From positions 234,104-298,103 of the forward strand of contig JBFWWV010000004.1 in assembly GCA_050245995.1 (NCBI GenBank): a stretch of DNA of 64,000 nt, given 5' to 3'. The position numbers were made by a program, and so were the translations under genes. The notes beneath the pieces were generated by a model. The model saw only the letters and a list, made by a program, of their open reading frames with translations. It was not told where the DNA came from and made no database searches. Source of the stretch: Planctomycetota bacterium (GTDB lineage: Bacteria > Planctomycetota > UBA1135 > UBA2386). The first letter of the stretch is position 1; the number at the start of each line of letters is the position of its first letter. Shown in pieces: positions 18,684 to 35,346 of this stretch.

Positions 18684-19247
18684 ATGCGCCGCCAGAAGAC
18701 CCAGCCACCGAAGACCCAGCCGACCAAGCCCGGCAAACCCGCCAGCCGGCGCGCTGCGAAGCCGCGGCTGCTCGCCGGCGGCAACCCGCAGATCGCCAAG
18801 GCCGACGGCGACGCCGCGGTCCAGGCCTACCTCGCCGCGATGCCCGGCTGGACGCGCGCCGTCGGCCGCCGCCTCGACGACCTCGTCACCCGCGCGGTCC
18901 CCGGCGTGGCGAAGGCCGTGCGCTGGAACTCGCCGTTCTACGGCGTGCCGGGCAAGGGGTGGTTCCTGTCGTTCCACTGCTTCACCCGCTACGTGAAGGT
19001 CGCGTTCTTCCGCGGCGCGGCGCTGCGACCGCCGCCGCCCGTCGCGTCCAAGGACGAGCACGCGCGCTACCTGCACGTGCCCGAGGAGGGGGCGCTCGAC
19101 GAGGCCCGGTTCGAGGACTGGGTGCGCCAGGCGAGCCGCCTGCCCGGGTGGGGCGCGGACGCCGGCGATGGCGCGCCGCGCGTCGGCGAGGGCACGGGCA
19201 GCGCGCGGAAGGCGAAGGCTGCGCCGAAGAAGCCGTCGCGGCGCTGA
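18684..19247 (+). CDS. DUF1801 (YdhG-like) domain protein
   Basis: Track ORF 18642..19247. ATG at M15 chosen; the GTG at 18642 overlapping the upstream stop is an alternative. Motifs WNSPFYGVPGKGWFLSFHCFTRYVKVAFFRGAAL are typical of DUF1801. Confidence 0.6.
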   Translation: MRRQKTQPPKTQPTKPGKPASRRAAKPRLLAGGNPQIAKADGDAAVQAYLAAMPGWTRAVGRRLDDLVTRAVPGVAKAVRWNSPFYGVPGKGWFLSFHCFTRYVKVAFFRGAALRPPPPVASKDEHARYLHVPEEGALDEARFEDWVRQASRLPGWGADAGDGAPRVGEGTGSARKAKAAPKKPSRR

Positions 19248-19260
19248 GCCGAGGTCCCGC

Positions 19261-19878
19261 ATGGCGCGCAAAGACACGAGCGCTGCTGCCGTCGGCACGG
19301 TCGAGCACGCCAACACCGCCGTGCTCGTCACCGTGGCTCCCGACGGCGCCCTGCTGGACCGCCGCCGCATCGCGCTCACCGAAGGCCTGCCGACGCACCC
19401 GCACCACCACGAAGGGTCGTGGGCGGTGGGCCGCTACCTCGACAGCCCGTGGGCGCGCCCGGTCACGCTGCCCGAGGCCCTCGAACTGGTCGAATGCGTG
19501 CGCGCGGCGGCGGCCGAGGGCGCGCGCCAAGGGCTCGCGGACCTGTCGGCGGCGGTGCCCGTGCCGATCGCGCGGATCGCGTTGCGCGTCTGCCCGGCGT
19601 TGCCGCCGACGGCCGAGGCGCGGATCGCCGATACCCGCGCGCAGACCGTCGCGGACTCGGTGATGTATCGCGAGGCGCTGGCCGCGGCGGCTGCGGCGCT
19701 GGGCTGGGAGGTGACGTGGTACGACAGGGACCGCGTGTTCGACGAGGCACAGGCCGCGCTCGGCGACACGGCGCTCGCGCCGTTCCTCACAGCGATGGGG
19801 CGCGCCGCAGGGCCGCCGTGGCGGGCCGAGCACAAGCTCGCGGCGGCGGCGGCGATCGCGGCGCTCCATGGCAAGTGA
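19261..19878 (+). CDS. hypothetical protein
   Basis: Track ORF 19168..19878. ATG at M32 preceded by GAGG 8 nt upstream. No recognisable motifs. His-rich stretch PTHPHHHEG. Confidence 0.5.
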   Translation: MARKDTSAAAVGTVEHANTAVLVTVAPDGALLDRRRIALTEGLPTHPHHHEGSWAVGRYLDSPWARPVTLPEALELVECVRAAAAEGARQGLADLSAAVPVPIARIALRVCPALPPTAEARIADTRAQTVADSVMYREALAAAAAALGWEVTWYDRDRVFDEAQAALGDTALAPFLTAMGRAAGPPWRAEHKLAAAAAIAALHGK

Positions 19879-19995
19879 TCGGCGAGTGGTCGGCGCCGTT
19901 CGTCGGCTGGGAACCCAGCAGCCGAATTGGTCGCCGCAGCGGTCCGAGCCGTGGGCGCCGTGCAGGGGCGGAGTTCGCACGATAGACTGCGTGCG

Positions 19996-20226
19996 ATGTC
20001 GGAGCTCAGAGCGCGTGTCCGGAATGGTCGTCTGGTCCTCGACGAGGCGACGGACCTTCCCGAGGGGACCGAAGTCGAACTCGTGCCGGCGGACTGGTGG
20101 GACCATCTCTCCGATGAGGACCGACGCAAGCTCGAAGACGCGCTGGCACGTTCCCAGCAGGACGCAGAGGCAGGGCGCGTGAAGCCTGCGACGGACGTGC
20201 TCAAGGGACTTCGACTCCGCGAGTGA
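19996..20226 (+). CDS. type II toxin-antitoxin system antitoxin (swapped-hairpin AbrB/MazE-like or Phd-like), partner of ParE
   Basis: 76 aa, MSELRARVRNGRLVLDEATDLPEGTEVELV. The stop overlaps the toxin start (GTGA). Confidence 0.65.
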   Translation: MSELRARVRNGRLVLDEATDLPEGTEVELVPADWWDHLSDEDRRKLEDALARSQQDAEAGRVKPATDVLKGLRLRE

Positions 20227-20540
20227 CGTCCGGACCATGGACTGTTTTCTTCACCGCGACGGCCGAGGATCAGGCGCGGCAGGTCGCGGAGCGGGGGGCG
20301 GCCGAACGATCCGCCGCCCCGACGCTGTTCCTCGACGAGCTGGAGCACGCCATCGATCGTCTGTCGACCATGCCTGGAAGCGGCGCTCCGTTCCGTTCGC
20401 AGTCCGTGCCTGGCGTGCGGAGGGTCCTGCTGCCGGGTAGCAGGTACCACGTCTACTACTCCATCGACGAAGGTGCGCACGAGGTCCTCGTTCGCGCAAT
20501 CTGGCATGGGGCTCGCGGGCACGGCCCCTCACTCGGCTGA
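20223..20540 (+). CDS. ParE/RelE-family type II toxin
   Basis: 105 aa. N-terminal WTVFFTATAEDQARQV and C-terminal RYHVYYSIDEGAHEVLVRAIWHGARG match the ParE/RelE fold signature. Confidence 0.75.
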   Translation: MTSGPWTVFFTATAEDQARQVAERGAAERSAAPTLFLDELEHAIDRLSTMPGSGAPFRSQSVPGVRRVLLPGSRYHVYYSIDEGAHEVLVRAIWHGARGHGPSLG

Positions 20541-20624
20541 TGCGGTCGGCCAGCACCCCTGCGGTCCGTTCTCCCGTCGGACGGACGGGATCCGAGGACC
20601 GCTCGCGCCTATCCTGCCGACCCA

Positions 20625-21572
20625 GTGACGTCACCCGTCGAGCCAGACCGCGTCTCCGACACCGAGCCCGCGCCCGACGACCTCCAGGCCGTCCTCGACG
20701 AGGTGCGCCGCATCGAGGTGCAGAGCAACCGGCTCGTGCGCGGCGTGATGGCGGGCGGTTACAGCTCGGTGTTCCGCGGCGCGGGCATGGAGTTCGAGGA
20801 GGTGCGCGAGTTCGTCGAGGGCGACGACCCGCGGCTGATCGACTGGAAGGTGACCGCGCGCGCGGGGCGGCCGTTCGTCAAGAAGTTCGTCGACGAGCGC
20901 GAGCTGGTGGTGGTGTTCCTGCTCGACCTGTCGCCGTCGATGACGGGCGGCACCGGCGTGTGGTCGGCGCGGCAGCTGGCGGTGCGGCTGTGCGCGTGCA
21001 TGGCGCTGGCGGCGGTGCGCAACCACGACAAGGTCGGGATGATCGCGTTCGCCGAGGGCGTCGAGCGGTTCGTGCCGCCGCAGAAGGGGCGCGGACACGC
21101 GCTGCGGATCGTGCGCGACGGGCTGCTGCTGCGCGCGGCCGGGACACGGACCTCGTTCGCACCGGCGCTCGAGTACGCCGGGCGCGTGCTGCGGCGGCGC
21201 GCGGTGGTGTTCCTGGTGTCGGACTTCCTGGGGCCGCCGATCGGGCCATCGCTGCTGCGCTGCGCGCAACGGCACGACCTGGTGGCGGTGCGGATCCTGT
21301 CGCCGGAGCTGTTCCCGCCGCGGCGCGGGCTGCAGCGGCTGCGCGATCCGGAGAGCGGCCGCGAGGTGGTCGCCGACTGGAGCAGCGAACCGGTACGCGC
21401 GGCTTGGCTCGAGCGCGTCGCGAGCTGGCGCAAGCGCGTGGACGACGAGCTGGCGCGCGCCGACGTCGACGTGATGGACGTGCCGGTGCCGCTGGTCGCC
21501 GACAAGGACGCGGTTGCGCGGCCGATCCTGCGGTTCTTCCAGATGCGCGAGCAGCGCGGGGCGCACCGGTGA
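20625..21572 (+). CDS. DUF58 domain protein (MoxR/Bat-operon associated, VWA-like)
   Basis: Motif YSSVFRGAGMEFEEVREFVEGDDPRLIDWKVTAR is the DUF58 signature. GTG start. The stop overlaps the next gene start. Confidence 0.75.
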   Translation: MTSPVEPDRVSDTEPAPDDLQAVLDEVRRIEVQSNRLVRGVMAGGYSSVFRGAGMEFEEVREFVEGDDPRLIDWKVTARAGRPFVKKFVDERELVVVFLLDLSPSMTGGTGVWSARQLAVRLCACMALAAVRNHDKVGMIAFAEGVERFVPPQKGRGHALRIVRDGLLLRAAGTRTSFAPALEYAGRVLRRRAVVFLVSDFLGPPIGPSLLRCAQRHDLVAVRILSPELFPPRRGLQRLRDPESGREVVADWSSEPVRAAWLERVASWRKRVDDELARADVDVMDVPVPLVADKDAVARPILRFFQMREQRGAHR

Positions 21573-22483
21573 GGCGTTGCTGCGCGGTCCTGCTGCTGGT
21601 GCTGGCCGGGTGCGGCGGCGCGCCGCTGCCCGAGGTCGACTTCGAGGTCGCGCTGGCGGCGACTCCGGCGACCGTCGAGTTCGGCGCGCCGTTCGCGCTC
21701 GAGGTCACCGCCACGTTCCGCCGCGAGTTCGAGCCCGAACCGTTCGCGGCCGAATGGCTGCTGCCGCTGGAGCTCGAGCCGACCGGCGAACGGCGGCGTG
21801 ACGACGGGCGGCGCGTGCAGCGGGTGCTGGCGTTCCGCGCGCGCGCGTTCGCCAGCGGTGAGGTCGCGGTCGGCCCGATCGAGTGGTCGGCGCGCGACCC
21901 GGACGGCGGCGCCGTCGTCGCGCGCAGCGCGCCGCTCCTGCTGCGCGTGGCGTCGGCGCTCGGGCCCGATGCGGCGGCTGCGCCCGAGGGGCCGCTCGAG
22001 CTGCTGCCGCTGCCGCGAACGCCGGTGTGGCCCTGGGCGCTGGGCGGCGCCGTACTGCTGTGCGCTGCAGCGCTCGTCGCGTCGCGCGCGCGCAGGCGGT
22101 CGGCACCGCCACCGGTCGCAGCGGCGCCGGCACCGCCACCCGGACCGCCGTCGCGCGAGCGCGCGCTGCAGGCGCTGGCGGCGCTCGAACGCGACCTCGC
22201 CGCGGTCAACGACCGCGCGCTGTGCGACGCGATCACCGCCATCGTGCGCGACCACGCCGCCGCCGTGCTGCGACGCCCGACCGCGACGCGCACCAGCGAA
22301 GAACTGCTCGAACTCGCGACGCCGCTGGTCGCCGCCGCCAGGACGCCGCTCGGCGCGTGCCTGTCCCACTGCGACCGGGTCAAGTTCGCCGCCGGCGCGC
22401 TCGACGGCGGTGCCCGCGACGGCGTGGTCGCCGCGGCGCGCGCGTTCGTGCAGGCCAGCGCCGGCCCGGAGGTCGCGGCGTGA
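21569..22483 (+). CDS. DUF4381-like lipoprotein/bitopic membrane protein of Bat-like operon
   Basis: Real part of track ORF 20540..22483 from VRRCCAVLLLVLAGCGG (lipobox). Extracytoplasmic domain, single TM WPWALGGAVLLCAAALVASRARRR, cytoplasmic tail. Confidence 0.6.
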   Translation: MRRCCAVLLLVLAGCGGAPLPEVDFEVALAATPATVEFGAPFALEVTATFRREFEPEPFAAEWLLPLELEPTGERRRDDGRRVQRVLAFRARAFASGEVAVGPIEWSARDPDGGAVVARSAPLLLRVASALGPDAAAAPEGPLELLPLPRTPVWPWALGGAVLLCAAALVASRARRRSAPPPVAAAPAPPPGPPSRERALQALAALERDLAAVNDRALCDAITAIVRDHAAAVLRRPTATRTSEELLELATPLVAAARTPLGACLSHCDRVKFAAGALDGGARDGVVAAARAFVQASAGPEVAA

Positions 22484-23463
22484 ACGCGGTGCTCGAAGGC
22501 CTGTCCGGGCTGCGGCTGCTGGCGCCGTGGTGGGGCGTGCTGGCGCTCCTGTGGCTCGGGGTGGCCTGGCACGCATGGCGTCGGCGACCGCGCGCGACCG
22601 CGTTCGCCGCCTCCGCGGTGCTCGACGGCGCGCCGCAGCTGCCGCGCAGCTGGCGCGCGCGGCTGGTTGCGCTGCCGGCGTGGCTGCACGGCCTCGGCGT
22701 GCTGCTGGCGATCGTCGCGCTGGCGCAACCGGCGCGGCGGGTCGCGTTGCCGGTCGTGCACGAGGGCGTCGACCTGCTGCTGTGCCTCGACGTGTCGTCG
22801 TCGATGGCGACCGCGGACCCCGGTGCGGCGACGTCGCGGTTGGAGCTGGCGCGCGCGGCCGCGGCCGAGTTCGTGCAGCAGCGCGAACACGACCGCATCG
22901 GCCTGTGCGCGTTCGCGCGCTACCCGGACCTGCTGTGCCCGCCCACGCTCGACCACGCCGCGCTGCTGCAGCTGCTGCAGGAGACGCGGCCCGTGCCGCG
23001 CGACGCCGCCGAGGACGCGACCGGTATCGGCACCGCCGTGGCGCGCAGCGTGCAGGCGCTGCAGCACGCCGAGTCGCCGTCGCGCGCCGTGGTCCTGGTC
23101 ACCGACGGCGACGAGAACGTCGCGTCGGCCGGCGCGCCGCGCGAGATCGGGCCGCTGCAGGCGGCGCAGCTCGCGGCGCAGCAGGGCGTGCGGGTGTACG
23201 CGCTCGCGGTCGGCGCCGCGGCGGAGCTCGACACGACGCAGATCGAACAGCTGGCGCTTCGCACCGGCGGGCGGCTGTTCCGCGCCGCCGACCCGGCGGC
23301 GATGCGCGCGGTGTGGAGCGAGATCGACCGGCTCGAACGCGCGCCGCTGGCGGCGCCGCGCTGGCGCTTCGAGGAGCGGCACGCGCCGTTCGTGCTGGCG
23401 GCGTTGCTGGCGATCGCCGCCGGCTGGGTGTTGCGGCGCTCGGCGCTGGAGGTCGTCGCGTGA
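22480..23463 (+). CDS. VWA domain membrane protein (BatA-like)
   Basis: Real part of track ORF 21883..23463 from MNAVLEGLSG. Two N-terminal TMs. VWA MIDAS DLLLCLDVSSSM...VLVTDGDEN. C-terminal TM. Confidence 0.8.
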   Translation: MNAVLEGLSGLRLLAPWWGVLALLWLGVAWHAWRRRPRATAFAASAVLDGAPQLPRSWRARLVALPAWLHGLGVLLAIVALAQPARRVALPVVHEGVDLLLCLDVSSSMATADPGAATSRLELARAAAAEFVQQREHDRIGLCAFARYPDLLCPPTLDHAALLQLLQETRPVPRDAAEDATGIGTAVARSVQALQHAESPSRAVVLVTDGDENVASAGAPREIGPLQAAQLAAQQGVRVYALAVGAAAELDTTQIEQLALRTGGRLFRAADPAAMRAVWSEIDRLERAPLAAPRWRFEERHAPFVLAALLAIAAGWVLRRSALEVVA

Positions 23464-24479
23464 TCGGGTTCGCGTTCGACGCGCCGTGGTGGGCGTTGCT
23501 GCTGCTGCCGCTGGCGGCGCTGCCGTCGTGGCTCGCAGCGCGCGATCGCGCGGCGGCCGCGCTGCGCCGCGAACTGCTGGGACCGCGCGCCGCGCCGGCG
23601 CCGGCGTCGCGGTCGGGGCGCGCGAGCCGTTGGTGCGGTGTCGCGGCGCTCGCGCTGGCGGTGCTCGCGCTGATGGGGCCGCGCTGGGGCGCGCCGGTCG
23701 CCGCCGACGCGGCCACCGCGCGCGACCTGGTCGTGTGCCTCGACGTGTCGCGGTCGATGCGCGCGCGCGACGTGACGCCGAGCCGGCTCGAAGCCGCGCG
23801 CGCGGCGATCGCGGCGCTGGCCGAACGCGCCCGCGGTGACCGCCTGGCGCTGGTCGCGTTCGCCGGCGACGCGCGCCTGCGCGTGCCGCGCACGACCGAC
23901 GCCGACTCGTTCGTGCAGCTGCTGCGCGGCACCGACGAACTGTCGGTGGCGCGCGGCGGCACCGACCTCGGCGCGGCGCTCGATGCGGCGCTGGCGGCGC
24001 TGGTCGGTCGGCGCGGCGGCGCCGCCGTGGTGCTGGTGACCGACGGCGAGGACCACGCCGCGCGCGGGCTGGCCGCCGCGCAGCGCTGCGCCGCCCAGGG
24101 CATCGCCGTGCACTGCGTCGGCCTCGGCAGCGAGCGCGGCGGCAAGGTGCCGGTGCCGCGCCTCGGCGGCGACGGCGAGACGTTCCTGCGCGACGCGCAG
24201 GGCAACGAGGTCGTGTCGGCGCTCGACGCGGCGTCCCTTGGCGCGCTGGCGGCCGCGGCCGGCGGCACGTTCGCGCGCGCCGACTCGGCCGAGGCGGCGA
24301 CGGCGGCGCTGCGCGACGTGTACGAACGGCGCGTGCTGCCCGCCGCTGCAGCAGGCGGCGCCGAGGGCGACGAACTGCGCGTGCCGGCCCGGTTCCAATG
24401 GCTTCTGCTGCCGGCGGTGCTGCTGTGGCTGCTGCAGGTGTGGCTGCGTCGCGCGGCGCGCGCGCCCCGCCCGGCCTGA
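23460..24479 (+). CDS. VWA domain membrane protein (BatB-like)
   Basis: Real part of track ORF 21798..24479 from VIGFAFDAPWWALLLLPLAA. MIDAS DLVVCLDVSRSM...VLVTDGEDH. C-terminal TM. Confidence 0.8.
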   Translation: MIGFAFDAPWWALLLLPLAALPSWLAARDRAAAALRRELLGPRAAPAPASRSGRASRWCGVAALALAVLALMGPRWGAPVAADAATARDLVVCLDVSRSMRARDVTPSRLEAARAAIAALAERARGDRLALVAFAGDARLRVPRTTDADSFVQLLRGTDELSVARGGTDLGAALDAALAALVGRRGGAAVVLVTDGEDHAARGLAAAQRCAAQGIAVHCVGLGSERGGKVPVPRLGGDGETFLRDAQGNEVVSALDAASLGALAAAAGGTFARADSAEAATAALRDVYERRVLPAAAAGGAEGDELRVPARFQWLLLPAVLLWLLQVWLRRAARAPRPA

Positions 24480-24489
24480 GCGGAACGCC

Positions 24490-25242
24490 CTACACGCCGA
24501 GCGCGAACGCGCGAACCATCCGCCGCTCGTCGGCGGACAGGCACGCCGCCAGGGTCTTGGCCTTGGGGCCGGCCGGGTGCCCGAGGAACAGCACGAGCCG
24601 CTCGCGGCCGGCGAGCTCGAGTGGACCGGCCAGCGCGCCCTCGGACCGGATGCCCAGCGTCTCGGCCAGCTGCTTCCGCACCTTCAGGCCGACCGCGACG
24701 ACGACGCGCGCCGCGCTGAGCTGCAGGACCGGCCGCAGGTAGCGCCCAGCACACTCGCGCAGCGCCTGCTTGACGCCCTCCTCCTGGCGGGACTTGCAGT
24801 GCACGACCTCGGTCAGCGCATAGTCGACGCCCGGCACCGGGTCGCGGCCGAGGATCTCGGTGGCGCGCTTCTTGATGTTGCTCCAGTACGGCCGGGCCTC
24901 GCTGTGCTGCCCGTCGGCGTTCAGCCGACGGTTGCCATCCAGGATCCACGGTTCGCGTCCGCCGCCGAACCGGTTGGTGAAGTAGTCGGCGATGGCGTCG
25001 TCGGTCCAGTTCCAGCGCGGGTAGCGTTCCTCTGCCGTGATTCCGGGGTTCGAGCTGAGGAACAGGATCGGCGCCTGCTCGATGCGGCCGCTCCACGGTT
25101 CGGGCACCTGGAACGCGTCGAGGTCGCCAGTCTGCACCGCGACGATGCGGCGGCAATGGTGCGGCGCCGCGCCGGCCTTGCAGGTCGCGACGTTGGGGCA
25201 GCGGGCGATCGAGAGGAGCAGGTCGGTGGCAGGGTCGGGCAT
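24490..25242 (-). CDS. uracil-DNA glycosylase superfamily protein (MUG/SMUG-like xNPG motif)
   Basis: Track ORF 24490..25323. Start chosen at M28 (MPDPATDLLL); 25323 is the alternative. Motif APILFLSSNPGITAEE resembles the G(I/M)NPG motif A. Motif B-like FLGHPAGP near the C-terminus. N-terminal Cys cluster CPNVATCKAGAAPHHC. Confidence 0.5.
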   Translation of the reverse strand: MPDPATDLLLSIARCPNVATCKAGAAPHHCRRIVAVQTGDLDAFQVPEPWSGRIEQAPILFLSSNPGITAEERYPRWNWTDDAIADYFTNRFGGGREPWILDGNRRLNADGQHSEARPYWSNIKKRATEILGRDPVPGVDYALTEVVHCKSRQEEGVKQALRECAGRYLRPVLQLSAARVVVAVGLKVRKQLAETLGIRSEGALAGPLELAGRERLVLFLGHPAGPKAKTLAACLSADERRMVRAFALGV

Positions 25243-25403
25243 AGGCTGTGACGTAGTTTGGCACTCTGCGACACTGTCGGGCGAATCACGACTGCCGCTC
25301 CAAGTAGCCGAGGCGCGCGGCATGACTTTGACAGTGGAGCCGAGCCTGAATGCTCTGCTCAGACGCCCTTGACGGGGCTCTCGATGGCGTTATCTTGGTG
25401 TGC

Positions 25404-26294
25404 ATGCGGCCGAAGAAGGCGAGACGACGGCGGAATGTCGGTAGGGCGTTGCTGGCCTTTGCGGCTCTGCTGGTGCTTGCGGTGGCATACTGGGCAACAT
25501 GGGAAGCCCCGGTCGCTTCTCCGGGGAGGACTATTGCGGTGGGTGGCCAGCAGGTTGCTATTGAAGCGCTTGCTCTGGACTATGAGAGTGTTCGGTCCAG
25601 TCTAGACGCAGTGATCGGATTCTCAGATGGAGAGTCGGATGATCACGGCGTTATATCGCCGGAGTGTGCCTCAGTAGAGGGGGACGCGAGCGTCGGCGCG
25701 CAGGTCTCGGATAAGCGATCAATATGGACTACAGTGCTCCGCCAGCCAGAGGTGCTTACGCCATTGGCAATTACTGAGAGTGTCGAATTCAACCCTCGGG
25801 CAAGTTCCTGCGGATCGCAGCCTATGGAGAGCCTGTCCGCGATAGTCGAATCTCATGGTGAGTTGATCAGGAGGGCTAGGCAGGTAGAGATGTCGACCCT
25901 GACGCAGGAGATGGCTCGCGCATATGTCTCAGGTACGTATCAACCCCCATCGCTTCTCGAGGACCCTCGGACGGCCTCTGTGGCTCGGCGAGTCTTGACG
26001 CAGCAAGGAAGGTCATCTCTCCTCACAAAGCCCCGTGAAGCCCTAGAGTTTCTGTCGCATTCTGTGGAGTTGCTGACAGAATGCAACTTTGGCGTCTTCT
26101 CGATCAATGGTGAGACGGCATTGTTCCTGATCGACGACCTCCCTGGTACCGTGGAGGCTCGGAAGTTCAGGAGCTTCCTGGAATACGAGTATGTGTCCAT
26201 GTTGTCTCAATGGGCGCTACACTGGAGGCTTCTTTCGCCGTGGGAATGCGATAGCCTGCTTCAGCGCTTCTCTCAGGCCAAGCAAGTCTACTGA
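25404..26294 (+). CDS. hypothetical membrane-anchored protein (low-GC island gene 1)
   Basis: Track ORF 25350..26294, start at M19: MRPKKARRRRNVGRALLAFAALLVLAVAYW (signal anchor). No recognisable motifs. Local GC ~50% against a ~70% background. Confidence 0.5.
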   Translation: MRPKKARRRRNVGRALLAFAALLVLAVAYWATWEAPVASPGRTIAVGGQQVAIEALALDYESVRSSLDAVIGFSDGESDDHGVISPECASVEGDASVGAQVSDKRSIWTTVLRQPEVLTPLAITESVEFNPRASSCGSQPMESLSAIVESHGELIRRARQVEMSTLTQEMARAYVSGTYQPPSLLEDPRTASVARRVLTQQGRSSLLTKPREALEFLSHSVELLTECNFGVFSINGETALFLIDDLPGTVEARKFRSFLEYEYVSMLSQWALHWRLLSPWECDSLLQRFSQAKQVY

Positions 26295-26331
26295 TCGGGG
26301 TGTCTCATACAATCCAAAAGAGGAGAGTGGA

Positions 26332-26850
26332 ATGAAGAGTCCCAATTGGACGTCGATTGCAGTTGCTTTCTCGCTACCCCTTGTTGTGATCCCGAGTGCT
26401 GTTTTCGACGACACGGGAGCAGAGCCTGTATGCGTGTCTGCGTGTGCCGCAACCTATGGCAACAGTCCTACCGGGGGGAGTGTCGGTGTTGCGGCGAGTT
26501 CAGCATCCGGCAACTCGAATGGTGAGTGCGATTGTCTTCAAGACCATTGCAGTAAGGTGAAAGACTGCGACATCTTGGTGTTCTTCCAGGTTGTGGTCTT
26601 CGATCCATTCCCAGGCGATGGTCCTACGACGGTCGTCTTTCCGCCCGATGCCAACGGATACTCGGTGCATATCGACAACGATCCCTCTACTGGCTACCCC
26701 AATAGTCATTCCACGGGCATCTATGTGGATGCCTGTGGCGCGATAGCGGTCAAGACGCTCACAGTCAAGAATCCGGATGGTAGCACTGGATCATTCGGAA
26801 TATCTCTTGGCTGCGGCAATTGCGCATTGGGTGACTGGAATTGCCCCTGA
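26332..26850 (+). CDS. small secreted cysteine-rich protein (172 aa, 10 Cys in mature part; low-GC island gene 2)
   Basis: Track ORF 26191..26850. ATG at M48 preceded by the perfect SD AAAGAGGAGAGTGGA-ATG. Signal peptide MKSPNWTSIAVAFSLPLVVIPSAV. Cysteines at CVSAC, GECDC, DHC, KDC, DAC, GCGNC and WNCP. Local GC ~45–55%. Confidence 0.6.
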   Translation: MKSPNWTSIAVAFSLPLVVIPSAVFDDTGAEPVCVSACAATYGNSPTGGSVGVAASSASGNSNGECDCLQDHCSKVKDCDILVFFQVVVFDPFPGDGPTTVVFPPDANGYSVHIDNDPSTGYPNSHSTGIYVDACGAIAVKTLTVKNPDGSTGSFGISLGCGNCALGDWNCP

Positions 26851-26949
26851 GCCGAGGTCGGCGCTCAGTTCACGGCAGCCGAGGAGCTGAAGTAGCACCG
26901 TAGCACCCGCAGTGCGAGGGTCCTGAGGCTCGTTGATGTTCACCTATGT

Positions 26950-26989
26950 GCGCGGCGGCCGGCTGGGTCGCCACATGCGGCCGCCGCGC
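26950..26989. terminator. 12-bp perfect-stem hairpin between convergent genes (putative bidirectional terminator)
   Basis: GCGCGGCGGCCG – 16-nt loop – CGGCCGCCGCGC. Lies 10 nt after the selenoprotein stop (minus strand) and 100 nt after the Cys-rich gene stop (plus strand). No clean U-tract, which is common in high-GC genomes. Confidence 0.45.
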
Positions 26990-26998
26990 GCCCGCGCC

Positions 26999-28051
26999 TC
27001 AGCGCTTCTTGCCGTGCCGCGGGCAGGCGCGGTCGCCGGCCTGGCAGGCGCCGCAGCTGCGGTTGTAGCCGAGCTTGCCGCCGTCCTTGAGCTCGTCGGC
27101 GAGCTCCTTGGCGCGCTTGCCGGCGCGGGTGCTGCGCTGGCGCGACGACAGCTTCTTGAGCTCGCCGTAGGCGTCGTCGTAGTCGCGGCGCTCGACCAGC
27201 TGCAGCAGCTCGGCGAGCTGCTTGCCGGCGTCGATCTCGCGGGCGATCTTCTTGTCGGCGAGCAGCTCCGCGAGTCGCGCGGCGGCCTCCTCGGCGCGCG
27301 GCACGCCGTCGTAGCCGCCGTTGGCGACCGCGTCGAGCTGCGTCCACGCCAGGTGGTAGTCCTCGTCGGTCACGGCGGTGGCGGCGCCGTCGAGCGAGCT
27401 GCCGACCAGATCGGTCATGCGCGCCATGCGATCCCGCGCCTGCGCGGCCGCGGCCTCGGACAGCCCGCCGCCGTCGAGCAGCTCCTGCGCCTTCCGGAAG
27501 GCCGCGCCGGGCTTGCCGGTGCGTTGCAGCTCGGCGACCTCCTCGAGGCCCGCGGCGACGTTGGCCGGCCGCGCGCCCTCGAGCGTCTTCTCGATCAGCG
27601 ACTCCTCGAGCTCCGCGGGGTGCCCGGCGAAGCGGACGATGCCCTCGGCGTCGACGAGGACGCACGCTGGGATGCCGCGGTGGTCATAGCCCGACTCCCA
27701 GGAGCCGATCGCGACCGGGTAGATCATGTCGGGCGTCTTGTCGAGGAACGCCTGCAGTGCCTTCTTGGTGCCGCCGGTCACACCGACGACCACCAGACCC
27801 CGGTCGAACATGCGCTCGTGCAGCGAGCGCAGGTGCGGGATCTGGTGCATGCACGGCACTCAATGGTCGCCCCAGAACTCGATCAGTACGGCCGAGCCGC
27901 GCAGGTCGCTGAGCTTCTCGTCGGCGAAGCCGTCGAAGTGGAACGTCTCCAGGAACGTGATCTCGGCGGCAGGCTTGCCGACCTTCTGGGCCGGCAGCAT
28001 CGCGACCAGGTTGGTCGCCAGCAGCAGCCCGAACGGAACTCGCATCGTCAT
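26999..28051 (-). CDS. TlpA/ResA-like thioredoxin-fold thiol:disulfide oxidoreductase with in-frame TGA (putative selenocysteine) in the active-site UxxC motif
   Basis: Two track ORFs are contiguous in one frame and separated only by TGA at 27860..27862: 27860..28075 (ending ...AVLIEFWGDH) and 26999..27859 (starting V-PCMHQIPHLRSL...GLVVVGVT). The joined sequence FWGDH-U-VPC aligns with the canonical FWATWCGPC...GL.VVGV of the Cys paralogue at 41731..42915. Start at M9, with GGAGG 6 nt upstream of ATGACGATG. Signal peptide MTMRVPFGLLLATNLVAMLPAQ. Stable hairpin GCGCUCG-CUGCA-CGAGCGC about 30 nt downstream of the UGA (SECIS-like). C-terminal helical extension ends in CGACQAGDRACPRHGKKR. Confidence 0.7.
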
Positions 28052-28184
28052 CGGTCTCCTCCGGAGGTCCGACACGATAGCGCCGCGCGGGCCCGGCGAC
28101 AGCGGGGGAGGGCCGGTCCGGCGTCCCGGGACGATTCCTTCACGATCGCCTGGCCGAGCGCTGCCGTGACCCGCGCCCGACCGG

Positions 28185-30419
28185 TCAGCGGATCACGGTC
28201 ACCAGGTCGACCAGCCCGACGTCCACGAACTGTCCGCCGCCGGTCTGCCGGCAGCGCACCGCCAGGACGTGCCGCCCTGGCGTCAGCAGCTCGTTCGCCC
28301 GGGCGCCGTCGACCGGCAGGTAGCCGTAGCCGGTGGTGTAGCCCGTCGCGGCCGCGATCGGGCGGCCGTCGACGAACACCTCGACGTCCTCGTCGTGGTG
28401 GATCGACCAGAACGGGTCCTGCAGCGGCCCGAGGGGCACCGAGATCTCGCGGCGCAGCCAGATCGCGCCGGTGTTCCACTCGGTGCCGACGCGCGCGCCG
28501 GGGGTGCCCTCGGTGCCGAAGCCGCCGTCGCCCTCCTGCCACCCGGAGTCGTCGAAGTCGGCCGCGGCCCAGTCGGCTGCCGGCTCGTGGGTGGTCCAGC
28601 GCCACCGCTGCGGCCCCTGCTGCGCGTTCGGGACGATCACGCGCAGCTGGCCGGGACCGCGGTAGAGCCGCCGCGTCAGGTCGCGCACCGGTTCGGCGCG
28701 GATCTTCTCCACTGCGCGGTCGTACGTCAGCCAGCCGTTGACCTCGACCTCGACGTCGGTGGTCTGGGTGTAGACCGCGGCGCTGAGGCCCTGCGCGATC
28801 AACGGGCGCAGCTGCACGAGCTGGCGCGCGTAGGCCGCGGTCAGCGCCGCCTCGTCGGCGTACGTCACGTAGCCCCAGTTGTCCTTGTCGACCCAGGTGT
28901 GGCCCGCGATCGGCAGGCCGAGGCCGCCGTACTCGCCGAGCACCGACGCCCGCGCGGCCTCGGCCTCGGCCATCGACGGGCCGGGATAGCTGTGGATGTC
29001 GATCACGTCGCCGCACGCCTGGTCGGTCCAGCCGCTGGCGTTGTTCACCCAGCGCGTCGGGTCCAGTTCGCGCACGAGGTCGACGTAGCGCGCGGTGTCG
29101 TGCTGGCCCCAGCCCTCGTTGAACACCACCCACATCGCGATCGACGGGTGCCGGCGGTGCGTCGCGATCAGCGCGCGCAGCTCGCGCTCGTAGGTGGCCG
29201 GGTCCTTCTGCAGGTCGCCCGACGGCATGTCCTGCCACACGAGGATGCCGCGGCGGTCGCACTCGGCGTAGTACTGCTCGCACTCGACCTTCACGTGCTT
29301 GCGCAGCATGTTGCAGCCGCGCGCCTGGATCGCGTCGAGGTCGAACACCATCGCCGCGAACGTCGGCGGCGTGTAGATGCCGTCGGGCCAGTAGCCCTGG
29401 TCGAGCGGGCCGAACTGGAACAGCGGCAGGCCGTTCAGGTGCAGCCGCGTCGTGCCGCGGTGGTCCTTGGCGACCGTCAGCTCGCGGAACGCGAGGTAGG
29501 TCGACACGGTGTCGATGGCGGTGCCGCCGCGCCGCAGTTCGACGCGCGCCGGGTACAGCCGCGGGTGGTCGGGGTGCCAGGCCTCGAACCGATCGGCCGG
29601 CACGGTGACGCGCAGCGGCGAGCCGATGGCGGCGGTCACCGGATCGAACGACGCCGCGTCGCCGCGCGTGTCGTCGTGCACCGACAGCACGGTCAGCGTG
29701 TCGCCGGGCTCTTGGCCGTCGACCTCGACGTGCACCGTGGCGGTGCGCGGACCGAGTTCGACCGTGTAGTGCAGGTCGCGCACGAACGCAGTCGGCAGCG
29801 GCTCCAGCCACACCGTCTGCCAGATGCCCGAGCACGGCGTGTACCAGATGCCGTGCGGGTTGAGGATCTGCTTGCCGCGCGGCTGCGGGCCGTCGCTGCT
29901 GGGGTCGCGCACCGCGACCACGACCGTGTGCTCGCCGTCGCCGCGCAGCGCCGTGGTGATCTCGAACGAGAACGGGTCGTAGCCACCGGCGTGCTCGCCG
30001 ACCGGCGTGCCGTCGATCCAGACCTCGCACTGCCAGTCGACCGCGCCGAAGTGCAGCATCCAGCGCGCGGCAGGCTGCGTGCCGAGCGCGAACGTGCGCC
30101 GGTACCACAGCCGCTGGTCGGGCCGCAGCACCGCGCCGACGCCCGACAGCGCCGACTCGAGCGGATACGGGACCAGGATGCTGCCGGCGAAGGTCTCGGG
30201 CCGCTGCCCGTCGCCGTCGGTGATCGCATGGTCCCAGGCGCCGTTCAGCGAGCGCCACGCCGCGCGCTGCAGCGTCGGCCGCGGGTACTCCGGCCACGGC
30301 GCCGCGCGGTCGACCTCGTCGGCCCACCTCGTGCGCAGCGTCGGCGGCGCGGGATCCTGGGCCGTGACCTGTGCGCCGAGGGCGGCGCCGAGCAGTGCTG
30401 CGATCGAGACGCGATGCAT
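28185..30419 (-). CDS. glycoside hydrolase family 2 protein (beta-galactosidase/beta-mannosidase/beta-glucuronidase-like), secreted
   Basis: 744 aa. Signal peptide MHRVSIAALLGAALGAQVTAQD. GH2 sugar-binding, Ig-like and TIM-barrel regions with the catalytic acid/base context WVVFNEGWGQHD. Confidence 0.85.
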   Translation of the reverse strand: MHRVSIAALLGAALGAQVTAQDPAPPTLRTRWADEVDRAAPWPEYPRPTLQRAAWRSLNGAWDHAITDGDGQRPETFAGSILVPYPLESALSGVGAVLRPDQRLWYRRTFALGTQPAARWMLHFGAVDWQCEVWIDGTPVGEHAGGYDPFSFEITTALRGDGEHTVVVAVRDPSSDGPQPRGKQILNPHGIWYTPCSGIWQTVWLEPLPTAFVRDLHYTVELGPRTATVHVEVDGQEPGDTLTVLSVHDDTRGDAASFDPVTAAIGSPLRVTVPADRFEAWHPDHPRLYPARVELRRGGTAIDTVSTYLAFRELTVAKDHRGTTRLHLNGLPLFQFGPLDQGYWPDGIYTPPTFAAMVFDLDAIQARGCNMLRKHVKVECEQYYAECDRRGILVWQDMPSGDLQKDPATYERELRALIATHRRHPSIAMWVVFNEGWGQHDTARYVDLVRELDPTRWVNNASGWTDQACGDVIDIHSYPGPSMAEAEAARASVLGEYGGLGLPIAGHTWVDKDNWGYVTYADEAALTAAYARQLVQLRPLIAQGLSAAVYTQTTDVEVEVNGWLTYDRAVEKIRAEPVRDLTRRLYRGPGQLRVIVPNAQQGPQRWRWTTHEPAADWAAADFDDSGWQEGDGGFGTEGTPGARVGTEWNTGAIWLRREISVPLGPLQDPFWSIHHDEDVEVFVDGRPIAAATGYTTGYGYLPVDGARANELLTPGRHVLAVRCRQTGGGQFVDVGLVDLVTVIR

Positions 30420-30903: not shown

Positions 30904-30973
30904 CCGCGAGTAGCTCAGTGGCAGAGCACAGGACGACCTCCTGGGGTGGCGGGTTCGAATCCCGCCTCGCAGC
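30904..30973 (+). tRNA. tRNA-like element, probable tRNA pseudogene/remnant (canonical D-arm and T-arm, 5-nt anticodon loop)
   Basis: Acceptor CCGCGAG/CTCGCAG with one C·A mismatch. D-arm is UA GCUC AGUGGCA GAGC. T-arm is GCGGG UUCGAAU CCCGC. The anticodon arm CAGGA-CGACC-UCCUG has only a 5-nt loop (central GAC). The sequence was validated against the antisense track ORF 30890..31300 translation. Confidence 0.4.
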
Positions 30974-32569: not shown

Positions 32570-34234
32570 TCAGCGCGGGTCGTCGAGGCGGCGCAGCGCC
32601 GCCGCGGCGGCCTGCGTCGCCGCGTCGTCGGCACCGCGGTGCGTGCGCCGCAGGTCGAGCAACTCGGCCGCGAACGCGCGCGCCGCGGCGCGGTCGCGTT
32701 CGCCGAGCGCGGTGACCAGGCCGTCGAGGCAGCGCTCCTCGTCGCGCCAGCCGAGCCCGCGCGTGGTGCGGGTCTGCAGCAGCGCCGGCCGCAGCAGCAC
32801 CGCGGCGGTGTCGACCTCGCCGAGCTGCAGGTGCACGCGCGCCAGCGACAGCGCGAGCCGCGCCTGCGCCTCGGGCGCCTCGTCGAGGTCGGCGAGCCAG
32901 CGCGACGCACCGGCGGCGGCGCGACGGAGCGCGTCGGCGTCGGCGCCGGGGTCCGCGGCCAGCTGTTCGAGCAGCTGCGTCACCAGCTCGGCGGCCTGCA
33001 CCGCGCCGGCGTGCGCGCGCCAGGCGATGCGCTCGCTGCGCTCGACCTCGTCGAGGCTGTGCAGCGCGCCGAGCCAGCCGCCGAGCGGCAGGCACACCAG
33101 CGCCACGACCGCGGCGGTGCGCAGCGGCCGCCGCCGGGCCGCGCGCACCAGCCGGACCAACGGCCGTTCGCGCGCCGCCAGCGGCGGCCTGCCGTCGAGC
33201 CAGCGCCGCAGGTCGTCGGCGAGGTGGCGCGCCGACGCGTAGCGCTCGGTCGGCTCCTTGCGCAGGCAGCAGGCGGTGATGATCCACAGGTCCCCGGGCA
33301 TCGCCGCGGCCGGTCGCGGCGGCGCGTTCCGCACGGCGGCCTCCAGCGCGCGGCGGTCGTCGTCCGCGACCGCGTACGGGCCATGACCGGTCAGCAGCTC
33401 GCACAGCAGGACGCCCAGCGCGTAGACGTCGCTCCGGGTGGACACCGGCTCGCCGCGCACCTGCTCCGGGCTGGCGTAGCGCGGCGTGAACGGCGCGCGC
33501 GCGCCGGTGTCGGTGTGGCCCGGATCGGCGTCGCGGTCGAGCAGCTTGGCGACGCCGAAGTCGAGCACGCGCGGCGCGCCGTCGGCGCCGACCAGGATGT
33601 TGCTCGGCTTCAGGTCGCGGTGCACGACGAGGTGCGCGTGCGCGTGGTGCACCGCGTCGCACACGCGGGCCAGCAGCGCGACCCGCGCGCGCGCCGGCAG
33701 CCGGTGCTCGGCGCAGTGCGCGGTGAGCGGGGCGCCGTCGACCAGATCGGTGCGCAGCCACGGCCGGCCGTCGTCGAGGTGGCCGGCGGCGCGAACGCGG
33801 ATCAGGCCCGGGTGATCGAGCCCGCGCAGCACCTCGTGCTCGCGCGCGAACCGCGCGGCGACGTCGCCGGCGCCGAGGTCTCTGCGCAGCACCTTGATCG
33901 CCGCGCGGCAGCCGTCGGCGGCGACGCCGCGATACACCGTCGCCGAGCCGCCGCGGCCCAGCACGGCCTCGAGGCGGTGGCCGTCGACCACGGCGCCGAG
34001 GAGGTCCTCGCCATCGTCGTCGCCGGCAAGGAGGGTCTCGCCGAGCAGCGTCAGGGCGTCGCCGTCGAGCAGCGTCTCGGTGGCGCGGTCGGCGTCGAGC
34101 AGCGCGCGGACCTCGCGCGCCACGGCCGGCGGCGCGGCCCGCAGCGCCTGCTCGCATGTCGCCGGCGGCGCCGCGCACAGGGTCTCGAACAGCGCCTTGG
34201 CCTGTTCCCAGCGGTGCTCGGCGGCCTCAGTCAT
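32570..34234 (-). CDS. serine/threonine protein kinase with C-terminal TM and extracytoplasmic/TPR-like domain
   Basis: Real part of track ORF 32570..34813 from M194 (MTEAAEHRWEQAKALF). Hanks kinase motifs: ATP-binding site LGRGGSATVYRGV, lysine AIKVL, catalytic loop HRDLKPSNILV, then DFG and APE. TM LRTAAVVALVCLPLGGWLGAL. Start overlaps the sigma gene stop by 8 nt. Confidence 0.85.
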   Translation of the reverse strand: MTEAAEHRWEQAKALFETLCAAPPATCEQALRAAPPAVAREVRALLDADRATETLLDGDALTLLGETLLAGDDDGEDLLGAVVDGHRLEAVLGRGGSATVYRGVAADGCRAAIKVLRRDLGAGDVAARFAREHEVLRGLDHPGLIRVRAAGHLDDGRPWLRTDLVDGAPLTAHCAEHRLPARARVALLARVCDAVHHAHAHLVVHRDLKPSNILVGADGAPRVLDFGVAKLLDRDADPGHTDTGARAPFTPRYASPEQVRGEPVSTRSDVYALGVLLCELLTGHGPYAVADDDRRALEAAVRNAPPRPAAAMPGDLWIITACCLRKEPTERYASARHLADDLRRWLDGRPPLAARERPLVRLVRAARRRPLRTAAVVALVCLPLGGWLGALHSLDEVERSERIAWRAHAGAVQAAELVTQLLEQLAADPGADADALRRAAAGASRWLADLDEAPEAQARLALSLARVHLQLGEVDTAAVLLRPALLQTRTTRGLGWRDEERCLDGLVTALGERDRAAARAFAAELLDLRRTHRGADDAATQAAAAALRRLDDPR

Positions 34235-34793
34235 GGTCGAGCTCCCGCTGCAGGAACGCGCGCGCCGTGCGCCAGCCGCGCTTGATCGTCGCCGTCGACA
34301 CGCCGAGCGCTGTGGCGGTGTCGTCGACGCCGAGGCCGGCCAGGAAGCGCAGCTCGACGATCCGGTGCAGCGCGGGGTCGACGCGCTGCAGCCGTTCGAG
34401 CGCCGCGTCGAGCCGCAGCACGCGGTCGTCGCGCGCCGCGTCGTCGCCCGGCGCCTGCTCCGCGGCCGCGGCCAGCGCCGCGCTGCGCGCGCGCCGGCGG
34501 CGGGCGCCGTCGACCAGCGCGCGCCGCATGACGGTCGCCACCAGCGCGAAGAACTGCGCGCCGTCCGCGCAGTCCGGCGCAGCGCCCCGCAGCCGCACGA
34601 ACGCGTCGTGCACCAGCGCCGTCGGCGAGAGCGTGTGCCCGGCGCCCTCCTGCGCCAGCCGCCGCCGCGCCAGCGCACGCAGCTCCTGGTGCAGCCGCGC
34701 GAACAGCTCGCCGTGCGCCGTCGCCGACCCGGCGCGCCAGGCGCGCAGCAGTTCGGGCACGGAGCGCCCGGCGGTGGGGGTCGTCGTCGCCAT
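34227..34793 (-). CDS. ECF-subfamily RNA polymerase sigma-70 factor
   Basis: Real part of track ORF 34227..35063 from M91 (MATTTPTAGRSVPELLRAW). Sigma2 region ELFARLHQELRALARRRL...ALVHDAFVRL. Sigma4 VELRFLAGLGVDDTATALGVSTATIKRGWRTARAFL. Confidence 0.85.
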   Translation of the reverse strand: MATTTPTAGRSVPELLRAWRAGSATAHGELFARLHQELRALARRRLAQEGAGHTLSPTALVHDAFVRLRGAAPDCADGAQFFALVATVMRRALVDGARRRRARSAALAAAAEQAPGDDAARDDRVLRLDAALERLQRVDPALHRIVELRFLAGLGVDDTATALGVSTATIKRGWRTARAFLQRELDHD

Positions 34794-34858
34794 CGGCGGC
34801 GCGAGCGTAGCACGAAGGCCGCGGGGCGAGGAGCCGCCCGCCGCCGCCAGGGGGCGCG

Positions 34859-35206
34859 TCAGCCGCCGGTCCGCACGGCGGCGGCCGCCGCGGTGAGTTC
34901 GGCGAACGACATGCCGTGCAGGCGCTCGCGCAGCGCGCGCTGCACCGCGTCGCCGTCTCCGCGCCGCGCCGCCGCCGCGCACGCGTCGCGCGACACCAGC
35001 AGGCACGCGTCGGCGAACTCGGCCTGCTGGCGGTTCGTCAGGGCGTCCTTGATGCGGCGGCACGTCGCGGCGAACGACGCTTCGCTGCGACCGTCGATGC
35101 GCGGCACGCCGTCGTCGGGCAACGGTCCCAGGGCGGCATCACAGCCGGTGCACACGGCGAGCGCGGCCAGCGCAGCGCGAAGCTGCGGGCGGAGGAGGCG
35201 GGCCAT
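34859..35206 (-). CDS. small secreted/lipoprotein-like hypothetical protein (115 aa)
   Basis: Track ORF 34859..35236, ATG at M11: MARLLRPQLRAALAALAVCTGC. Six Cys. Immediately upstream of the ECF sigma and STK genes on the same strand. Confidence 0.45.
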   Translation of the reverse strand: MARLLRPQLRAALAALAVCTGCDAALGPLPDDGVPRIDGRSEASFAATCRRIKDALTNRQQAEFADACLLVSRDACAAAARRGDGDAVQRALRERLHGMSFAELTAAAAAVRTGG

Positions 35207-35346
35207 GGGGCAGCATCGGCGTGGCGCGGGCGGCACCTGGAGGCGACGCCGCGGCTGCGCCTGCGGCCGCCGGGAAGGCCGCGATTCTCCAGAACGTTGA
35301 TCCCGCGCGCGGTCGCCGTTCGCTCGGCGCAGCGGAGCCCCGCTGC

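Follow-up and report, generated by a model that had tools for sequence, protein, structure and literature searches.

A 64-kb window of a Planctomycetota chromosome (contig JBFWWV010000004.1 of the GenBank assembly GCA_050245995.1; "the window" denotes this whole stretch of 64,000 nucleotides, to which all coordinates refer) contains a ~1.7-kb segment of low guanine-plus-cytosine (GC) content that carries two small genes, gene 1 and gene 2. This segment is read here as a recent foreign islet, the remnant of a mobile element, holding a two-gene unit whose products would both leave the cytoplasm. A probability of about 0.7 was given to this reading as regards origin and architecture, and a much lower one as regards the biological role. 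The donor would most likely have been an unsampled integrative element, phage or plasmid of ~55% GC, from which the islet would have entered the intergenic space that separates a UDG-family gene from a gene for a ResA/TlpA-like selenoprotein in a chromosome of ~75% GC. Genes 1 and 2 would form one compact transcription unit in which gene 2 is preceded by a strong ribosome-binding site. The product of gene 1 would be held in the cytoplasmic membrane by one N-terminal helix, with ~260 residues facing outward, and that of gene 2 would be exported by the Sec pathway, lose a signal peptide of ~30 residues and fold oxidatively into a beta-rich protein of ~14-15 kDa with up to five disulfides. The two products would then cooperate outside the cytoplasm, one of them exported as a binding or effector protein and the other tethered to the membrane, in an accessory role of the kind carried by mobile elements (competition, exclusion or surface interaction). 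Co-transcription, export, disulfide formation, the partnership and the biological role are what we infer; the coordinates of all features are collected in Table 1.

Base composition and coding content of the low-GC segment

The GC content of the whole window was 0.745, and most 1-kb bins lay between 0.70 and 0.80. In 300-bp windows, the GC content was 0.76-0.82 over 22.0-24.5 kb, dropped to 0.52-0.62 over 25.3-26.9 kb and rose to 0.69-0.76 beyond. The 1500-bp window with the lowest GC content of the entire 64 kb started at 25301 (GC 0.565) and lay ~7 standard deviations (SD) under the mean, given that 1500-bp windows away from the island had a mean of 0.750, an SD of 0.026 and a minimum of 0.685. 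In 150-bp windows, the island averaged 0.558 (maximum 0.653) vs 0.750 outside (minimum 0.62), and the 100-bp minima within it reached 0.49. The GC anomaly is therefore strong, real and unique within the window. The original prediction, which was made from the letters of the sequence, had described a drop from ~70% to ~45-55%: the trough proved to be real, whereas the baseline was ~75-80% rather than ~70%, and the range given for the trough (52-57% in 300-bp windows) was slightly low. The sliding-window GC and codon-usage analysis proposed there was run, and the composition was not uniform, the island being distinct in GC content, in GC content at third codon positions (GC3) and in codon adaptation index (CAI).

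The islet occupies the entire gap from the start codon of the UDG-family gene to the GC-rich hairpin behind the thioredoxin-like selenoprotein gene. Its right border was sharp, with a GC content of 0.65-0.67 until ~26935 and of 0.80 from 26940 (transition at ~26935-26945), and its left border (~25200-25260), near the start codon of the UDG gene, was gradual. The hairpin probably serves to terminate transcription of the convergent thioredoxin-like gene, and it possibly also ends the transcripts of the island. A perfect tandem duplication, GTAGCACC-GTAGCACC, was observed at 26892-26907 (plus strand), at the right edge of the low-GC segment and ahead of the hairpin; it could be due to chance or be an insertion scar.

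The codon usage of both genes departed from that of the native genes. GC3 was 0.63 in gene 1 and 0.57 in gene 2 vs 0.90-0.97 in every neighbouring gene; the CAI against native genes was 0.178 and 0.187, respectively, vs 0.58-0.81 for the native genes; and codons with a native relative synonymous codon usage below 0.1 made up 24.6% of gene 1 and 23.1% of gene 2, vs a native mean of 1%. These values support the horizontal acquisition that had been proposed for the segment. The codon positions of gene 1 followed the order GC1 > GC2 < GC3. The island's two longest stop-free runs span 314 and 239 codons. Among 2000 sequences simulated by a Markov model of its composition, the 99th percentiles were 260 codons for the longest run and 183 for the second longest, and the second longest never exceeded 223 codons, so that both open reading frames (ORFs) exceed the length expected by chance. 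A single frameshifted gene spanning both ORFs was considered and rejected, since gene 2 has its own ribosome-binding site and its own N-terminal signal.

Predicted products and search for relatives

The start of gene 1 was placed at 25404 by GenBank/PGAP and at 25350 by the gene caller of an assembly from the Logan collection; the alternative ATG at 25350, with a GGAG 10 nt upstream, yields a protein of 314 amino acid residues. The N-terminus is basic (MRPKKARRRR) and is followed by one hydrophobic helix, ALLAFAALLVLAVAYWATW, which was the sole confidently modelled segment of the protein (AlphaFold predicted local distance difference test score, pLDDT, of ~82). The earlier description of the product of 25404..26294 as N-terminally anchored thus held, one hydrophobic helix being present after a basic stretch. 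By this heuristic view of the topology, gene 1 may encode a bitopic membrane protein, or else a protein whose signal peptide has a long n-region. The predicted extracytoplasmic part (~260 amino acid residues) would be mixed alpha/beta, with four Cys and a largely helical C-terminal half. The sigma-70-like promoter match upstream of gene 1 is a weak candidate, given that one site was found vs 0.6 expected in shuffles.

Gene 2 lies on the same strand as gene 1, behind a 37-bp spacer. The hydrophobic core of its putative signal peptide spans residues 7-25 (Kyte-Doolittle maximum 2.01), with Lys2 in the n-region, and the likely signal-peptidase I cleavage site, read by eye, is located after TGA30 (TGA at -3..-1, before Glu31). 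The protein contains ten Cys (residues 34, 38, 66, 68, 73, 79, 135, 161, 164 and 171), and its layout comprises the signal peptide (~1-30), a CxxxC motif, a Gly/Ser-rich linker, a CxCx4Cx5C cluster, a beta-rich part of ~80 amino acid residues and the C-terminal CGNCALGDWNCP. All elements that had been noted earlier for gene 2 were recovered, namely the AGGAG-type Shine-Dalgarno sequence, the N-terminal hydrophobic segment, the 10 Cys and the motifs CVSAC, GECDC, GCGNC and WNCP. Envelope targeting of both products is consistent with these predicted features. Gene 2 was called by GenBank/PGAP and skipped by the gene caller of the Logan assembly (contig L001, 2316-3021, corresponding to 26294-26999 of the window), so that genes of such deviant composition in GC-rich genomes may systematically escape searches of protein databases.

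Neither protein was assigned to a meaningful family when Pfam, NCBIfam, PADLOC and PHROGs were searched; the best-scoring entries were a PHROG of unknown function, phrog_10237 (E 0.014), and, at E 0.087, a TIGR04203 repeat. A word-indexed search of 5.8 billion protein clusters returned only the self-hits of genes 1 and 2, and an exhaustive phmmer search, performed with gene 2 alone against 1.84 billion representatives of ~15 billion proteins, returned only its self-hit. No match to either protein was found among the PDB sequences, and no similarity of either to a toxin, bacteriocin, lectin or immunity family was found in Pfam, NCBIfam, PADLOC, PHROGs or PDB. Scans at the DNA level matter here because one gene caller skipped gene 2, so that uncalled homologs could exist: no match was found in phage and plasmid collections by blastn and tblastn, in GTDB genome contigs (gene 2), in IMG/VR (both genes) or in JGI metagenome contigs (gene 1). 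Within the window with the island masked, no paralog of gene 2 was found except for a match of its C-terminal tail, and genes 1 and 2 showed no similarity to each other. The models obtained with single-sequence AlphaFold2 (no alignment) were unusable (pLDDT 35.8 and 38.9). The original prediction that neither protein could be assigned to a family was borne out by all libraries and collections searched, which yielded only self-hits, and on these searches both genes are ORFans, with no match outside the source strain.

Flanking genes and a shared cysteine tail

The right-flank gene encodes a selenoprotein in which the in-frame TGA falls in the active site (…EFWGDH-U-VPC…, a UxxC motif). The protein matched Pfam AhpC-TSA (6e-11) and ResA chains in PDB (~1e-10), and a signal peptide is present. 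It has a helical C-terminal extension of ~170 amino acid residues, and it weakly resembles the VPGUxxT/WAxxUGC thioredoxin-like selenoprotein families of NCBIfam, under all their cut-offs, so that it may represent a distinct selenoprotein family. An 8-bp hairpin (GCGCUCGC/GCGAGCGC) was located ~33 nt downstream of the UGA, with a fold z-score that was not significant.

This gene and gene 2 are convergent, with stop codons ~150 bp apart, and the two proteins share a Cys motif at their C-termini. The pattern CGxCxxGDxxCP occurs exactly twice in the six frames of the 64 kb, once in gene 2 and once in the adjacent selenoprotein. Gene 2 ends in the motif (CGNCALGDWNCP, followed by the stop codon), and the copy in the selenoprotein is located six residues from the end (CGACQAGDRACPRHGKKR, followed by the stop codon). 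When gene 2 was compared by tblastn with the island-masked window, the best match was the extreme C-terminus of the selenoprotein (E 0.055, 39% identity over 33 amino acid residues). The local score of the tail was 55, and none of 2000 shuffles reached this value (mean 30.4, SD 4.3, maximum 50). The tail does not stem from a recent duplication, because the codon choices differ, being GC-rich in the selenoprotein and AT-richer in gene 2. The Cys tail of the selenoprotein lies past every family model matched, and tblastn of its C-terminal half against plasmids gave no match. The ferredoxin motif has the spacing CxxCxxCxxxCP, and the tail has the same spacing in that Cys stands at positions 1, 4 and 11 and Pro at position 12; however, the Cys at position 7 is replaced by Gly in both CGNCALGDWNCP and CGACQAGDRACP, both tail proteins carry Sec-type signals, and no ferredoxin family was matched. 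Sec export is not the usual route for Fe-S proteins.

The true start of the left-flank UDG-superfamily gene is 25242, not 25323. This gene was placed outside the islet because its GC3 (0.90) and CAI (0.68) are near-native; both values are at the low end of the native range. Its closest homologs (61-65% identity) were found in unrelated, non-syntenic contexts, one of them (contig L002, 9414-10172) in a defence island, where it is flanked by genes for a DNA2-like helicase, putAbiC and a full Type I restriction-modification system. The protein also showed a weak NCBIfam match to the anti-phage glycosylase Brig1 (E 0.041). It looks like an accessory gene, and the locus may be a recurrent insertion spot. 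An Rfam match to SECIS_2 on the opposite strand inside this gene (25104-25162, plus strand; 22 bits vs a gathering score of 70, E 0.64) is almost certainly due to chance.

The surroundings are made up of ordinary chromosomal genes, namely those for ParE, a DUF58/vWA Bat-like operon, the UDG-family and ResA-like proteins, GH2, tRNA-Val, Band 7, a Ser/Thr kinase and an ABC/OEP system. The ParE-family toxin gene (20223-20540, plus strand; GC slightly lower, 0.70) is located directly upstream of the DUF58/vWA operon, and in the annotation of a second metagenome-assembled genome (MAG) a gene of 76 amino acid residues, a possible antitoxin, overlaps its start. The native neighbours also include a Ser/Thr protein kinase (32570-34858, minus strand) and an ankyrin-repeat protein (35053-36783, plus strand); eukaryote-like domains are common in Planctomycetota.

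Table 1. Features of the low-GC islet and its flanks (positions in the window; a dot marks a feature given without strand)
Feature	Position	Strand	Remarks
Low-GC islet, probably foreign, ~1.7 kb	25243..26947	.	GC 0.558 inside vs 0.750 outside
Gene 1, 296 aa (amino acid residues), MGE3172235.1 / MGE3354257.1, AB7O97_06370	25404..26294	+	GC3 0.63, CAI 0.178
Sigma-70-like promoter match, TTGACG-16-TATCTT	25369..25396	+	Just upstream of ATG 25404
Predicted single transmembrane/signal-anchor helix of gene 1, ALLAFAALLVLAVAYWATW, after MRPKKARRRRNVGR	25446..25502	+	Kyte-Doolittle 19-residue maximum 2.05
Gene 2, 172 aa, MGE3172236.1 / MGE3354256.1, AB7O97_06375	26332..26850	+	GC3 0.57, CAI 0.187
Shine-Dalgarno sequence, GAGGAG	26320..26325	+	6 nt before the ATG of gene 2
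Putative Sec signal peptide of gene 2, MKSPNW / TSIAVAFSLPLVVIPSAVF / DDTGA	26332..26421	+	n/h/c layout, heuristic
C-terminal motif of gene 2, CGNCALGDWNCP	26812..26847	+	From sequence
GC-rich hairpin, 14-bp stem, no U-tail	26948..26991	.	Native side of the right border
UDG-superfamily gene, 250 aa (P0003), left flank, divergent from gene 1	24490..25242	-	GC3 0.90, CAI 0.68
ResA/TlpA-like exported thiol-disulfide oxidoreductase, right flank, convergent with gene 2	26999..28075	-	In-frame TGA 27860-27862
Motif CGACQAGDRACP in the C-terminal tail of the native thioredoxin-like selenoprotein	27020..27055	-	Matches CGNCALGDWNCP

Origin of the islet and alternative explanations

The island was recovered with identical sequence and with both junctions in three assemblies, on contigs of 308 kb, 34 kb and 10.5 kb. 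A contig of 10,540 bp (L001, run SRR27751816), built by a different assembler in the Logan collection, was 100% identical to positions 18775-29314 and spans both junctions, and a second GenBank MAG (GCA_050247215.1, contig JBFWUO010000053.1, L009, 34,459 bp) was 100% identical over 15,414 bp, with both genes called; each island protein accordingly has two GenBank accessions. Both flanking genes are intact, and the insertion respects the gene boundaries.

Several observations weigh against a foreign islet of mobile origin. No integrase, transposase or phage gene was found within ~10 kb, and the island proteins contain no mobility domain. No tRNA gene adjoins the islet, the only one (Val, at 30904) being ~4 kb off. 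The borders share no extended direct or inverted repeat, and alignments equal to those of the borders were obtained in 57 of 500 and 52 of 500 shuffles. The 8-mer AGCCGAGG, which had been taken as a hint of insertion-site repeats, is indeed present near the borders (25306, 26850 and 26877), but it is not meaningful, since it occurs nine times in the window vs 4.6 expected and its copies share no similarity beyond the eight letters. A core-motif test found no attC pair (RYYYAAC…GTTRRRY, 50-150 nt apart) on either strand between 25200 and 27000, the 37-bp intergenic spacer is too short for an attC site, and no Rfam family was matched in the island region. Searches with the GH2 gene (genome contigs) and the thioredoxin-like gene (metagenome contigs) revealed no close relative of the host in which an empty site could be seen. 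The locus is 100% identical in the other assemblies in which it occurs, and their comparison thus gave no signal of polymorphism or of the ratio of nonsynonymous to synonymous substitution (dN/dS). Transfer was deduced from composition alone, because neither a donor nor a relative was found; one gene caller left gene 2 uncalled; and a Cys tail common to the native neighbour fits awkwardly with a purely accidental insertion. In favour of a foreign origin, previous work has shown that nearly all ORFans are compositionally atypical, and clusters of 2-6 atypical genes were read as remnants of integrative elements (PMC2718499); ORFans also typically exceed their hosts in AT content (PMC3514957).

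The sequence comes from a metagenome-assembled genome and its GC contrast is extreme, which could suggest that assembly or binning placed DNA from an organism of lower GC content within the Planctomycetota contig. This is barely credible, given that the same sequence was found over both junctions in three assemblies of differing contiguity and method, and that a chimera would need two precise joins and a fragment that fits exactly in an intergenic gap with intact flanks. A native origin of the genes, with rapid evolution or with de novo emergence in an intergenic region rich in AT, would agree with the lack of homologs anywhere searched and of mobility signatures; it is nevertheless highly improbable, because native non-coding DNA of the window never falls below ~0.62 GC in 150-bp windows, vs an island mean of 0.558 over 1.7 kb, and because two adjacent ORFs (296 and 172 codons) that both carry a targeting signal would hardly emerge de novo. 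A serious rival, if an unlikely one, is that the islet is silent passenger DNA, whose ORFs are intact only through recency and are poorly expressed and functionless in the host. The CAI of 0.18-0.19, with about one quarter of the codons almost unused by the host, points in this direction; there are no homologs from which purifying selection could be deduced, and the identical copies provide no polymorphism evidence of constraint. It has also been argued that such ORFans are quickly removed (Cortez et al., PMC2718499). On the other hand, both ORFs are intact and longer than chance, both carry coherent N-terminal targeting signals, and gene 2 has a strong ribosome-binding site.

The remaining alternatives concern the role of the pair. 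In the original prediction, gene 2 was likened to a disulfide-rich secreted toxin, bacteriocin or lectin, and gene 1 was regarded as a possible partner (immunity, maturation or receptor). On this model, an antibacterial protein or lectin would be exported by Sec, and the protein that protects against it or matures it would be anchored in the membrane. Toxin/immunity-type pairs are often horizontally mobile and lineage-restricted, and a small exported Cys-rich protein beside a membrane-anchored protein in a compact foreign unit would suit such a pair; this role is nonetheless quite unlikely, given that no bacteriocin, toxin, lectin or immunity family was matched in Pfam, NCBIfam, PADLOC, PHROGs or PDB, that no dedicated transporter, protease, regulator or maturase is located nearby, that no structure model was usable, and that nothing sets this role apart from other extracytoplasmic ones. 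It was also considered that gene 2 is functionally tied to the adjacent ResA/TlpA-like selenoprotein, be it as its client, as its partner or because both carry the Cys motif, in which case CGxCxxGDxxCP would be a metal binder or recognition tag and the position of the island would not be accidental. The restriction of the motif to the C-termini of two convergent neighbours, the tail score above all 2000 shuffles and the position of an exported 10-Cys protein next to an exported thiol-disulfide oxidoreductase all speak for such a tie. Yet the window-wide tblastn E value was just 0.055, the hypothesis was framed post hoc, Cys matches inflate scores, the composition shows that the histories of the two genes differ, and the tail lies outside all family models matched, which together leave this link improbable. 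Slightly more improbable is the broader proposal that gene 2 founds a new disulfide-rich exported family, that its tail is a module common with the UxxC selenoprotein (a metal or redox handle, or a tag), that the cassette was retained beside a cooperating oxidoreductase, and that gene 1 is the tethered partner or immunity factor. A recently acquired foreign islet that encodes two envelope-directed products is the reading preferred here.

Among known systems, the closest description is that of an ORFan islet or small cluster of atypical genes, with which the segment agrees in composition and in the lack of homologs. AT-rich ORFans were reportedly described by Daubin and Ochman. Like the ORFan islets of Cortez, Forterre and Gribaldo (2009, PMC2718499) and of Yu and Stoltzfus (2012, PMC3514957), the segment is AT-richer, has no homologs, comprises two genes and is bordered by intact native flanks; it differs in that the contrast is unusually large (GC3 lower by ~0.35), the ORFs are fairly long (296 and 172 amino acid residues) and no relic of an integrase or attachment site is present. 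The classical marks of a genomic island (a mobility gene, a tRNA and flanking repeats) are absent from the islet. A prophage moron was considered and rejected, since no prophage is present at the locus. Morons are independent transcription units of deviant GC content carried by temperate phages, and the islet resembles them as a compact deviant-GC unit with a possible promoter of its own, a downstream hairpin and envelope-directed products. Unlike them, it is located outside any prophage, with no phage gene within ~10 kb, and it matched neither PHROGs nor the phage collection nor viral contigs. With pairs of a Sec-dependent bacteriocin and a membrane immunity protein it shares a small signal-peptide protein beside a membrane-anchored protein in a mobile context, whereas no sequence or structural similarity was found, and the gene order and sizes are not diagnostic. 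Integron cassettes and clusters of attC sites lacking integron integrases (CALIN) likewise hold orphan ORFs that are promoter-proximal, deviate in composition and lack their own mobility genes; here, an integron cassette was rejected since no attC site was found by the core-motif test, and in addition the 37-bp spacer is too short and no integron integrase is present.

The function of the islet cannot be read from its sequence. Orphan low-GC islets are common, and nothing in this one is mechanistically surprising, with the possible exception of the Cys tail; a lack of relatives holds for a large share of Planctomycetota genes. If the preferred reading is correct, the islet would be a clean, minimal example of the entry of orphan genes into a bacterial chromosome, with the traces of the vehicle gone. 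Given that its GC3 is lower by ~0.35 than that of the host, the acquisition must then be recent, and since no relatives were found among ~15 billion predicted proteins, the two genes would come from unsampled sequence space and possibly represent new folds. If the Cys tail is real, it would connect a native thiol-disulfide oxidoreductase that depends on selenium with a secreted, Cys-rich protein that was acquired.

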